34,881 nucleotides of DNA from assembly GCA_013154225.1 (NCBI GenBank), contig JAADCW010000009.1, forward strand, positions 1-34,881, in the 5' to 3' direction. The first letter of the stretch is position 1. Each line of letters begins with the position of its first letter. This DNA comes from Chloroflexota bacterium (lineage in GTDB: Bacteria > Chloroflexota > Anaerolineae > Anaerolineales > DRMV01). Under the pieces are notes generated by a model that saw only the letters and a list, made by a program, of their open reading frames with translations, did not search any database and had not been told where the DNA came from. Position numbers and translations under genes: made by a program. Shown here one piece after another: positions 8,301 to 34,129 of this stretch.

Positions 8301-8654
8301 CCAAATGCCGACCACGCTGCCGCTGATGAGCGCGAGGATGACCGCCGGCCCTGTGCCAAGGAAGCCCGCGGCCAGCATCCATGTCAGCGAGGCAAAGGGC
8401 ACCAAAACTGGGACGGCTTCACCCAAGGGCGCGATGGTAGAACTGGGGCGGAAAAAGCCCCCCAAGGCGGCCAGCAAGGGGGTTAGGGCGAGCAGGACCA
8501 CGAACGCGGCTGCATGCGGCGCACGCCAGCGAGGATGTTGTGCACGGGCTTGGTAGATCAGACCCCCTAAAATCAGTATCCAAACTAACAGGAGGAGCCC
8601 GTTACTGAACGGCAGGAAGTAAGCGGTGCGGGAGAAAAGCCATTGCATGGTCAT
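5334..8654 (-). CDS. multi-TM sensor histidine kinase (N-terminal polytopic region, extracytoplasmic Cache-like region, HAMP, GAF, PAS, HisKA, HATPase_c)
   Basis: The ORF is 5334..8705. It carries the H-box FVATVSHDLRAPL, the N-box LHNLVDNAIKYT, G1 DTGVGI and G2 GTGLGLSIV. The HAMP-like segment is RLTRSLRELTQATESLASGQLDHALEINSMDEVGQLGQAFENM. I moved the start to the ATG at 8654 (MTMQWLF; 8648 is also possible) because promoter-like elements occupy 8667..8704. No response regulator is adjacent. Confidence 0.85.
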   Translation of the reverse strand: MTMQWLFSRTAYFLPFSNGLLLLVWILILGGLIYQARAQHPRWRAPHAAAFVVLLALTPLLAALGGFFRPSSTIAPLGEAVPVLVPFASLTWMLAAGFLGTGPAVILALISGSVVGIWGSHLTFEPFVQAVLALLFGWAIWQPYRERFYRLIRQPLIAAVLLTAIYPFLFIFGVLTLGNSPLAARVDYAFSHIGIFTLYKFIELLIAGVVAQIAHDKQKHLWGYHGPARLSSWSRSLHYKFLVVMAGIMGAVVIGILLGNWVMAQRSAREMLTERLSSTANIAAKSMPFFTENGDSLIRKLAHDEALWQEPSPQLNEYLHQLLTESFFFNEMLLVDAQGNTIASYPPNETLLAPERMYVLHFLASNEMQDAPIATHLTVTAPAPADASETSSGVKKALVVFAASLPLPQDQNLQGQNQEAPPEPRFLIGRASLGNNPYAEPIVKGLATLSNIGGGALILDNEHQILYATAPDMQWMETAISNDKLGPADIHSALGERYLAYTTQAVGSSWLIVVAAPARNLQEIALNNAWPLTLWVLMLSLVGVGITGLLLRRLTRSLRELTQATESLASGQLDHALEINSMDEVGQLGQAFENMRQRLRKRMDELNRLLQTSQRVAASLRVEDAAQAVLEAALASGATVARVALSPEALPDDWNDDYPLHFGKGLDADRYQSLDPQILPLVRSRSPLRLTNLEHSTTLQMPSGITPPKAILAVALQYEQRFLGVLYLIYNTPHTFTDEEVRYISTLAMQMAMAAYTARLYFMAEVRHQRLTAVINASPDPILVTDNQERLILANAAAFEQLPIQRQLNLPLEEAIQTEDLIQLLRRKDPPPYSAEITLNGRVYFATVASVRTSHHEVGRVCILRDVTHFKELDALKSEFVATVSHDLRAPLTLMRGYITMLEMVGELNERQKRYIQQIQQGVEDMTQLVNNLLDLGRIEAGVGLQPQLVSVLDVIEDITKRWQPRAQQKHITLRTDIAPDAPPLVEADPVLLDRALHNLVDNAIKYTPEGGTVTIFAKPAGDTGIILGVSDTGVGISPLDQPRLFEKFFRVVRRDQPKEKGTGLGLSIVKSIVERHHGRIWVESQLRQGSTFFIQLPLRQPKEDV

Positions 8655-8666
8655 GTCGCCTAAGGG

Positions 8667-8682
8667 TGCAAGTCGCGTGCCA
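8667..8682 (-). promoter_or_regulatory. sigma-54-type -24/-12 element (TGGCAC-N5-TTGCA) at the 5' end of the kinase gene
   Basis: The minus strand reads TGGCACgcgacTTGCA, an exact match to all 11 specified consensus positions, ending 12 nt before the ATG at 8654. Confidence 0.3.
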
Positions 8683-8695
8683 AGTAAACATTCCC

Positions 8696-8704
8696 ATTTT
8701 AACA
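8696..8704 (-). promoter_or_regulatory. extended -10 element upstream of the kinase gene
   Basis: The minus strand reads TGTTAAAAT. It overlaps the ATG of the longest ORF (8705) and would give a roughly 35-nt leader to the ATG at 8654. Confidence 0.35.
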
Positions 8705-32666: not shown

Positions 32667-32948
32667 TTACTCTTCCACGATGGCCAACAGGTCGCTGGCT
32701 TCCATGATGAGGTGTTCCACGCCGTCGATTTTGATTTCGGTGCCGGTGTATTTCGGGTAGAGCACCTTCTGCCCCACCTTCACGGGGATTTCTTCTTCCT
32801 CGTCGCCGATAGCAATGACTTCACCGATTTGGGGCTTTTCTTTCGCGGTTTCCGGCAGCAGAATGCCGCTGCTGGTGCGGGGTTCTTCGTCTTCAGGGCG
32901 AATCAAAACACGGCTACCCAGCGGTTGGATTTTGATCTTGTCTGCCAT
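32667..32948 (-). CDS. groES: co-chaperonin GroES (93 aa)
   Basis: The sequence is MADKIKIQPLGSRVLIRPEDEEPRTSSGILLPETAKEKPQIGEVIAIG...VKVGQKVLYPKYTGTEIKIDGVEHLIM. GGAGGT lies 7 nt upstream. No groEL follows. Confidence 0.93.
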   Translation of the reverse strand: MADKIKIQPLGSRVLIRPEDEEPRTSSGILLPETAKEKPQIGEVIAIGDEEEEIPVKVGQKVLYPKYTGTEIKIDGVEHLIMEASDLLAIVEE

Positions 32949-32996
32949 AACGCTACCTCCACATTAGGGTCTTCTGGCGTTAATTTGCGCGCCGAT

Positions 32997-33025
32997 TTGA
33001 CAGTTTTTTAGAGCACTCCTATTTT
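32997..33025 (+). promoter_or_regulatory. possible sigma-70 promoter facing the lipoprotein gene
   Basis: The plus strand reads TTGACA (32997..33002), a 17-nt spacer, then TATTTT (33020..33025). The -10 overlaps the opposite-strand groES -10. It would give a roughly 140-nt leader. Confidence 0.35.
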
Positions 33026-33029
33026 AGCA
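33021..33029 (-). promoter_or_regulatory. extended -10 promoter element of groES
   Basis: The minus strand reads TGCTAAAAT, 72 nt upstream of the groES ATG. Confidence 0.4.
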
Positions 33030-33089
33030 CAAGGGAAGGGCGGCGTAGCCCCCTTGGAGGATTTCTAACAAATCTCTAACAAGCCACGT

Positions 33090-33105
33090 TGGCAGGATTT
33101 TTGCA
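33090..33105 (+). promoter_or_regulatory. sigma-54-type -24/-12 element (distal copy)
   Basis: The sequence is TGGCAGgatttTTGCA. The GG and GC dinucleotides and the spacing are correct, with one mismatch to TGGCAC. Confidence 0.3.
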
Positions 33106-33131
33106 GTACAATGAAGACAACGGTGTGCTTT

Positions 33132-33147
33132 TGGCACACGGCTTGCA
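33132..33147 (+). promoter_or_regulatory. sigma-54-type -24/-12 element (proximal copy) with ideal geometry for the lipoprotein gene
   Basis: The sequence TGGCACacggcTTGCA is an exact consensus match. The predicted start site near 33157 lies just upstream of the SD AGGAGG (33161..33166) and the ATG at 33173. Confidence 0.45.
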
Positions 33148-33172
33148 GCCCCGAGGGGCGAGGAGGTAGATT

Positions 33173-34129
33173 ATGCGAAGTTTCAAGAAGCAATCGTTTG
33201 TGATTTTGGCCGCGGCGTTGTTGGCGCTGGTGGCTTGCCGCCTTCCTGGAGCCAGCGCGCCCACGCCGATTGTCTTCCCAACGCCGAATTTGACCATGAC
33301 CGCGCTCTACAACCCCGACCAGGGGATCCCGCCCACGGCCACGCCGGTGTTGCTGTTCCCCTCGGCAACGCCTGGCACGACGGTGCAGCAGCCTTCGCCC
33401 ACGGCCGCGCCGGTGCTGATCCCCACGGTCACGCCCACGCCCGAAGCCACGGCCACAGCCCGCCCTGCCACGCGGCCTGGCCCTGTGGTCAAGGCCCCCT
33501 TGATGTGGGTCGCGCCTAACAACATTGACGGCAATTTGGGCGATTGGCACAATGATGTGACTTACCCCATCAACAACGTGGTGTATGGTGCGGCCAATTA
33601 CACCGGTGCCAGCGATGTCAGTGGCGAGTTCCGCATTGGGTGGGATTATCGCGCCCTGTATATCGGTGTGCGGGTGATTGACGACCATGTGGTGCAGACC
33701 CAGCACGGGGCGTACATCTACAAAGGCGATGACGTGGAAGTGCAGTTGGATACGGATTTGTACGGCGACTTTTACGTCAACGCCATCACTGCCGACGATT
33801 ATCAGTTGGGCTTTTCGCCTGGTGTGCCGCCCGGCACCTCGCCTGAGGCCTATTTGTGGTATCCCTCGGGCAAGGCTGGCGTGCCTGCCGGCGTGCAGGT
33901 GGGCGTTGCCATGTTGAGCAATGGCTATGTGTTGGAAATTGCCATCCCCTGGTCGGTTTTGGGCATCAAGCCCAGGAAGGGCATGGAGATGGGCTTCGCC
34001 ATTTCCATCTCGGACAACGACAACGCCACCCTGGCCGTGCAGCAGACCATGGTTTCCAACGATCCGTACCGCAAGTTGACGGATCCTACGACTTGGGGCA
34101 CGCTGGTGTTTTACGATCCTGGCAAGTAA
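33173..34129 (+). CDS. secreted lipoprotein with Pro/Thr-rich linker and CBM9/DOMON-like carbohydrate-binding domain (318 aa)
   Basis: The signal peptide ends in the lipobox LVAC (Cys22). A roughly 90-aa P/T/A-rich linker follows. The domain then reads NIDGNLGDW...FRIGWDYRALYIGVRVIDD...GDDVEVQLD...YVLEIAIPW...GFAISISDND, a pattern typical of CBM9-like sugar-binding domains. Confidence 0.75.
   Translation: MRSFKKQSFVILAAALLALVACRLPGASAPTPIVFPTPNLTMTALYNPDQGIPPTATPVLLFPSATPGTTVQQPSPTAAPVLIPTVTPTPEATATARPATRPGPVVKAPLMWVAPNNIDGNLGDWHNDVTYPINNVVYGAANYTGASDVSGEFRIGWDYRALYIGVRVIDDHVVQTQHGAYIYKGDDVEVQLDTDLYGDFYVNAITADDYQLGFSPGVPPGTSPEAYLWYPSGKAGVPAGVQVGVAMLSNGYVLEIAIPWSVLGIKPRKGMEMGFAISISDNDNATLAVQQTMVSNDPYRKLTDPTTWGTLVFYDPGK

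Follow-up and report, generated by a model that had tools for sequence, protein, structure and literature searches.

A conserved sigma-54-type promoter motif upstream of a CBM9-like lipoprotein gene in an uncultured Anaerolineales bacterium

A sigma-54-type (-24/-12) motif lying just upstream of a CBM9-like lipoprotein gene in an uncultured member of the Anaerolineales is very probably a genuine sigma-54 promoter. The motif is conserved across the genus, recurs before orthologues of the gene in other genera and is found in genomes that encode RpoN. With a probability of roughly 0.8, we read the region as a whole as follows: the motif at 33132-33147 would be a sigma-54 promoter served by an activator that works from solution, a second sigma-54-like string upstream of it would be a look-alike, and a nearby direct repeat would belong to the promoter of the divergent groES gene.

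The locus

The window, by which we mean the whole stretch of DNA analysed (34,881 nt), is one contig (C211) of an uncultured Anaerolineales MAG of 1.86 Mb, 77% complete and with 59% G+C, the host of the sigma-54-type site. The intergenic region of interest, 32949-33172, separates groES, on the minus strand, from the lipoprotein gene, on the plus strand (table 1). The lipoprotein, whose N-terminus reads MRSFKKQSFVILAAALLALVAC, consists of a signal peptide with the lipobox LVAC, a Pro/Thr linker and a CBM9_1 domain (Pfam PF06452, E 1.4e-22), and its orthologues are found across the Anaerolineales. When the sequence was re-read, all the strings quoted in an earlier sequence-only reading of this DNA, as well as the Shine-Dalgarno sequence and the ATG, were at the positions given there. 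An Rfam scan of 32850-33300 returned a single match, to an S15 leader inside the coding sequence, at 15.7 bits against a gathering score of 39.5. This match being sub-threshold, no known RNA element accounts for the scanned region.

Table 1. Features of the window and related sites in the host and other genomes. G000 is the host genome; positions without a contig name are those of the window.
Feature	Position	Strand	Remark
groES, divergent neighbour	32667..32948	-	ORF; 91-100% identical in syntenic congeners
groES extended -10 TGCTAAAAT	33021..33029	-	conserved as CTATTTTAGCA in 7/7 congeners
Chaperone-promoter upstream element TGTTAGAGATTTGTTAGAAAT	33061..33081	-	TCTAACA repeat read on the groES strand
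Distal sigma-54-like string TGGCAGgatttTTGCA	33090..33105	+	one mismatch to consensus
Conserved block TTTGCAGTACAATG	33100..33113	+	with likely sigma-70 -10 hexamer TACAAT, 33107-33112
Sigma-54 (-24/-12) promoter, very probable, TGGCACacggcTTGCA	33132..33147	+	GG 33133-33134, GC 33145-33146
Predicted sigma-54 transcription start	33157..33159	+	about 12 nt past the C of the -12 GC; standard geometry
Shine-Dalgarno AGGAGG	33161..33166	+	direct sequence reading
CBM9-like lipoprotein gene, 318 aa	33173..34129	+	ATG at 33173
Second exact sigma-54 match	8667..8682	-	12 nt before ATG 8654 of a 1106-aa HAMP-GAF-PAS histidine kinase
Extended -10-like TGTTAAAAT	8696-8704	-	just upstream of the kinase-gene sigma-54 element
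Motif TGGCACAAAACTTGCA facing rpoN	G000:C196:3132-3181		
Other copies of the chaperone element	G000:C187:10850-10870; groEL loci L075, L077, L079, L081-L084; dnaJ-like loci L067, L080		
Motif before lipoprotein orthologue, TGGCACgggaaTTGCT	G013		
Motif before lipoprotein orthologue, TGGCATcctccTTGCA	G011		
Motif before lipoprotein orthologue, GGGCACaagatTTGCA	G021		
Motif before lipoprotein orthologue, AGGCATaggaaTTGCA	G022		

The proximal element and its conservation

The string at 33132-33147 of the plus strand, TGGCACACGGCTTGCA, is an exact match to TGGCAC-N5-TTGCW, with its GG and GC exactly 10 nt apart. It is non-coding, faces the lipoprotein gene and has its 3' end 25 nt ahead of the ATG. 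In an alignment of the groES/lipoprotein intergenic region from seven species of the genus, all seven share TGGC and TTGCA without change and at an exact spacing, and the five bases between them vary freely (acggc, ggcct, agcca, agccg, tggct, gttta). Two blocks held at a fixed spacing around a free spacer form the pattern typical of sigma-54 sites. The -24 half reads TGGCCT in one congener (G001), the leader of which is unlike that of the others, and AGGAGG follows TTGCA after 11-13 nt in six of the seven species of the same alignment.

The motif is not tied to this neighbourhood. It also precedes the orthologous gene in different surroundings in four rpoN-positive genomes of genera g3, g4 and g6 (sequences in table 1), and some more distant homologues carry a -24/-12-like string, TGGCTTatttgTTGCA. 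Upstream of the majority of distant homologues, those of Anaerolinea thermophila and A. thermolimosa among them, the motif was not found; these motif-less genes may be paralogues.

By the standard geometry of sigma-54 promoters, the start of transcription is predicted near 33158, and the leader would be some 15 nt long and contain the Shine-Dalgarno sequence and nothing else. The predicted start would then lie 1-4 nt from the Shine-Dalgarno sequence, a short distance that counts against the model. A terminator-like palindrome, GTGTGC-N5-GCACAC (33123-33139), overlaps the proximal -24 block in the host and its closest relative (G002) only.

Exact matches to the motif are in clear excess. The window holds two, against 0.11 expected, and none of 100 dinucleotide shuffles reached that number; the sequence-only reading had put the chance expectation at 0.02, an underestimate by a factor of about five, yet the excess to which it drew attention is real. 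One-mismatch matches, on the other hand, number three against 2.4 expected, a count reached by 44 of 100 shuffles, so that the near match at 33090 is not significant alone. The scan of the whole genome for enrichment upstream of genes that had been proposed earlier was carried out by exact and one-mismatch matching, with 150 permuted motifs of the same composition as controls, and an excess was found. The exact motif occurs 11 times against a control mean of 1.6 (one of the 150 reached 11); at promoter-compatible positions, exact sites number three (0.1 in the controls) and one-mismatch sites 13 (2.7 in the controls), and none of the 150 controls reached either number. By eye, eight of the 11 exact sites are intergenic or at the 3' end of a gene, facing a start codon. 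The gene calls come from a simple caller that misplaced some starts and missed some genes: the exact sites on contigs C191, C222 and C233 were classed as coding, yet by eye they face gene starts, and the enrichment figures are thus conservative.

RpoN and a single activator

The host encodes RpoN (G000:C196:3336-4817), recognized by its DNA-binding domain (Sigma54_DBD, PF04552, E 6e-35), its core-binding domain (Sigma54_CBD, PF04963, E 3e-24) and the RpoN box ARRTVAKYR. Two further features of the protein were observed: a zinc-ribbon-like insert, CPRC-N10-CPKC, at residues ~52-79, at the junction of region I and the core-binding domain (Pfam DZR, E 7e-4), and an activator-interacting domain that matches Pfam weakly (E 0.007).

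The order of genes on contig C196, read directly, is rpoN, a PAS histidine kinase and an activator. The activator is made up of a REC domain, a Sigma54_activat domain (PF00158, E 2e-70) and an AAA lid (AAA_lid_14) that extends to residue 394 of 398, so the protein ends straight after the lid; its loop GAFTGA lies in the context ...GYEAGAFTGA.... A genome devoid of rpoN and of enhancer-binding proteins had been named as grounds for giving up the sigma-54 reading, and the host has both rpoN and one GAFTGA activator. Each of five relatives, their genomes 93-100% complete, likewise yields a single strong PF00158 match, in a frame of 391-417 aa. In the five genomes in which both genes were located (G001, G003, G005, G011 and G013), the activator is on the rpoN contig, ~2.4 kb from rpoN.

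By its domain content, with the features of type Ic, this activator is of the type lacking a DNA-binding domain, as are CtcC and FlgR. No HTH_8 match above the cut-off was obtained in six-frame searches of five genomes. The host genome being only 77% complete, it may have left out a further activator, one equipped with a DNA-binding domain; the near-complete relatives also show a single one. The enhancer-dependent control that the sequence-only reading had proposed for the lipoprotein gene fits poorly with a sole activator of this kind, and control is probably activator-dependent and enhancer-independent.

The motif tracks rpoN, and a putative sigma-70 promoter stands in where rpoN is absent

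rpoN is present in all 11 genomes that carry the motif before the lipoprotein orthologue, and within the family 14 rpoN-positive genomes hold 98 exact motifs against 20 matches to the reversed control pattern, nine genomes without detected rpoN holding 12 of each; since related genomes are not independent, fewer independent events lie behind this co-occurrence than the counts suggest. Genus g3 provides the clearest independent contrast between genomes with and without rpoN. There, five species keep the lipoprotein gene beside the same divergent neighbour and behind the same conserved leader (loci L017-L020 and L023). The sigma-54 motif is present in the two rpoN-positive species; at the same place, the syntenic orthologues of the three rpoN-negative ones (G010, G015 and G020) carry TTTGCTATAAT and not the sigma-54 motif. 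In the rpoN-negative syntenic congeners, TGCTATAAT, a putative sigma-70 promoter, stands in place of the sigma-54 motif, and promoter replacement in genus g3, read in this way, tracks the loss of the sigma factor.

The proposal that the proximal element is a sigma-54 promoter is in line with every computational test made. We therefore regard the element as very probably the genuine sigma-54 promoter of the lipoprotein gene, the activity of which would depend on RpoN.

Other candidate targets

The other exact match of the window had been correctly placed at 8667..8682; it is on the minus strand and faces the ATG of a histidine kinase gene at 8654. It is conserved in eight of nine genomes of the genus, 11-12 nt before the start codon (9 nt in G008), and the 12-nt gap seen in the window implies a near-leaderless sigma-54 transcript, as a prediction. 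The rpoN operon itself is preceded by a sigma-54 motif, TGGCACAAAWCTTGCW, ~1.0-1.2 kb before the region coding for the DNA-binding domain. Nine genomes of the genus share this motif, as does G013, and its presence suggests that the operon may be autoregulated by positive feedback. In the host and G002, a second copy, TGGCACGTTTATTGCT, stands head-on to the motif upstream of rpoN, 34 nt away.

Beyond these, the list of targets is drawn from motif position only, conservation having been checked for the lipoprotein, kinase and rpoN sites. Sites with no or one mismatch occur at G000:C191:10580 and 11836, C50:4552, C14:5438, C212:4227 and C76:2838; the genes behind such sites include ftsZ and the gene preceding it, an LCP-family ligase, a PD40-repeat membrane protein and a GH113/CBM20 lipoprotein, and one site precedes what appears from its sequence to be an ATP synthase c subunit gene. 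Several membrane proteins without a Pfam match are further candidates.

A likely sigma-70 -10 beneath the distal string

About 20 nt upstream of the proximal element in the window lies a block, TTTGCwGTACAAT, that is conserved in six of the seven congeners, at a distance of 11-23 nt from the sigma-54 element and at a distance from the direct repeat that varies too. By its conservation and by resemblance, TACAAT (33107-33112) is probably a sigma-70 -10. The tandem at the lipoprotein gene would thus most likely consist of a sigma-70 promoter followed by a sigma-54 promoter, and not of two sigma-54 promoters. A comparable nesting is seen at the kinase gene, where an extended -10 (TGCTAAAAT, or TGTTAAAAT in the window) lies 8-25 nt upstream of the sigma-54 element in six congeners.

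Such nesting raises the possibility that sigma-54 polymerase parked as a closed complex acts as a roadblock to, or a competitor for, the upstream sigma-70 promoter, the site then serving repression as much as activation. In keeping with it, the gap of 11-23 nt at the lipoprotein gene would place the predicted sigma-70 start in or just before the -24 block, and the layout is shared by the kinase gene. The idea is, however, purely architectural, and it is compatible with activation, to which it would add a layer rather than offer a replacement; as the account of this site we find it unlikely.

The string at 33090-33105 of the plus strand, TGGCAGGATTTTTGCA, had been put forward as the first of two tandem sigma-54 promoters. 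If both elements worked in this way, with the TCTAACA repeat as their activator or IHF site, the correct spacing of GG and GC in the distal string and its single mismatch would be explained. Its ten core letters are, moreover, kept between the host and G002 despite three other changes inside the string, and the additional sigma-54-like string upstream of rpoN in the same two genomes indicates a clade that may tend to duplicate such sites. The comparison with the other congeners points the other way. In the intergenic alignment, the distal GG half is present in two of the seven, namely the host and G002 (TGGCAG and TGGCAA), and is absent or deleted in the other five. Position 6 of the distal string is a purine, against C or T in every orthologous lipoprotein- or kinase-gene site examined, and one-mismatch matches are at chance level in the window. 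The conservation of the distal TTGCA has another reason, as these letters belong to TTTGCwGTACAAT. We also considered whether the distal TTTGCw could be the -12 half of an ancestral sigma-54 promoter and rejected this, there being no GG 10 nt upstream of its GC in five of the seven congeners. The distal string is probably a lineage-specific look-alike that overlaps the TACAAT block, rather than a conserved promoter; in the lineage of the host and G002, it may be a young second sigma-54 promoter.

The direct repeat belongs to chaperone promoters

The direct repeat was found as quoted, TCTAACAA-N3-TCTAACAA at 33064-33082. Its assignment to an activator or IHF-type site does not stand up to comparison. 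A 19-nt core, TTTCTAACAAATCTCTAAC (33062-33080), is identical in all seven congeners, and in all seven exactly 27 unconserved nt separate it from the extended -10 block of groES, CTTGTGCTAAAATAG, whereas its distance to the sigma-54 element, proximal or distal, changes by tens of nt. The pattern TTAGAGNTTTGTTAGAAA, with one mismatch allowed, occurs in two to three copies per genome in three genera, and a reversed control pattern gave no match in the genomes of these genera.

The other copies of the element lie before groEL and before a dnaJ/cbpA-like gene (table 1), and the consensus is T[TC]AGAG[AT]TTTGTTAGAAA. The groEL copy is accompanied by TTGACT-17-TAAGAT and a canonical CIRCE, TTAGCACTC-N9-GAGTGCTAA, and at groES, groEL and the dnaJ-like gene alike 35-37 nt separate the end of the element from the -10 hexamer. 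In G013, where groES and the lipoprotein gene have come apart, the intact element and its spacing have moved with groES, and a decayed copy, TTCTGACAATCTCAACAAC, alone remains beside the lipoprotein gene. The fixed spacing to groES, the recurrence at groEL and dnaJ-like genes and the separation in G013 together identify the repeat, on comparative grounds, as a chaperone-promoter upstream element, at some -48 to -66, and not as a sigma-54 enhancer or IHF site. Its layout, a 7-bp repeat with a 4-bp spacer, is reminiscent of the sites of tandem winged-helix regulators.

The string TTAGAGCACT was also considered as an enhancer shared by the two sigma-54 sites of the window and was rejected: the copy at 33009 sits in the groES leader, and upstream of the kinase site the string is not conserved in relatives. 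The groES leader itself (32949-33012, minus strand) contains short stems, GUGCY/GGCRY and GGCG/CGCC, that change together between congeners, and of CIRCE only a half-like string, GAGTGCTCTAA; RNAalifold gave no clear consensus structure for this leader.

With the repeat assigned to groES and the sole activator lacking a DNA-binding domain, two working sigma-54 promoters under an upstream enhancer become quite improbable. Least probable of all, to the point that we attach little weight to it, is that the proximal motif is another protein's operator or a chance match and that transcription is by sigma-70 only, from the conserved TACAAT or from TTGACA-17-TATTTT (32997-33025, 10 of 12 positions), for the motif follows rpoN across genomes and gives way to a sigma-70 -10 where rpoN is absent, recurs before orthologues in differing genomic contexts and has the two-block pattern described above. 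As a main promoter, TTGACA-17-TATTTT was rejected in its own right, TTGACA being present in the host and G002 only and TATTTT corresponding to the conserved groES TGCTAAAAT read from the opposite strand.

Discussion

Under the reading that we prefer, RpoN polymerase would bind the GG (-24) and GC (-12) of 33132-33147 and wait as a closed complex. The PAS kinase would sense a signal and phosphorylate the REC and AAA+ activator, which would then assemble and open the closed complex from solution, without an upstream enhancer, in the manner described for CtcC and FlgR (PMC3162934, PMC7482065). Transcription would proceed from the predicted start through the short leader. The TACAAT hexamer upstream would supply a sigma-70 -10, making the pair a sigma-70/sigma-54 tandem, and the TCTAACA repeat would serve the divergent groES promoter and take no part in sigma-54 control.

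Canonical sigma-54 promoters are exemplified by glnAp2 of E. coli, which has a sigma-70 promoter, glnAp1, upstream. The present site resembles this pair in its TGGCAC-N5-TTGCW core, in the placing of GG and GC one helical turn apart and in the likely sigma-70 promoter just upstream, and it shares with canonical systems an AAA+ activator with a GAFTGA loop. [quoted passage not shown]

Closer parallels exist for the activator. In Chlamydia trachomatis, the CtcB/CtcC/sigma-54 system combines a single REC and ATPase activator lacking a DNA-binding domain with a histidine kinase partner (PMC7482065). The activator described here is likewise a single REC and ATPase protein with a kinase partner, and the candidate targets are likewise rich in membrane and envelope proteins, the circuit here being a prediction from sequence. 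It differs in that the organism is a free-living member of the Anaerolineales and in that rpoN, kinase and activator form one operon with its own conserved sigma-54 motif, a putative promoter. In the FlgS-FlgR system of Helicobacter and Campylobacter, FlgR is a type Ic enhancer-binding protein (Francke et al. 2011, PMC3162934). [quoted passage not shown] The same survey put forward the theme that sigma-54 controls the bacterial exterior (PMC3162934), and the candidates listed here by motif position (lipoproteins, an LCP ligase, PD40 and other membrane proteins, ftsZ) would fit it.

A more general proposal can be made, tentatively and at somewhat less than even odds for all of its parts taken jointly. 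Many Anaerolineales may possess a minimal, self-activating sigma-54 circuit in which one operon (rpoN, PAS kinase and activator), under its own sigma-54 promoter, would supply a solution-acting activator for some 10-25 envelope and division promoters. The targets would be lipoproteins, an LCP ligase, ftsZ and sensor kinases; the promoters would often be nested behind a sigma-70 extended -10, with at least one near-leaderless transcript; and the circuit would have been lost in some congeners, a sigma-70 promoter then taking over at each target.

The kind of control is ordinary and the lineage unusual; what modest interest the case has comes from the lineage and from the minimal circuit around the promoter. 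Sigma-54 is recorded only 'in some' members of the Chloroflexota (PMC3162934), and our literature search for sigma-54 in Chloroflexota and Anaerolineae found that survey alone; such control is hardly described in the phylum. For annotation, the region carries the lesson that a look-alike motif and a nearby repeat need comparative evidence before they are read as one switch. The apparent swap in genus g3 offers a clear natural example of promoter turnover after the loss of a sigma factor. For the uncultured Anaerolineae, what is gained is one promoter with good support, a few candidate targets and a simple scheme of regulation, in which a single kinase and a single activator lacking a DNA-binding domain share an operon with rpoN.
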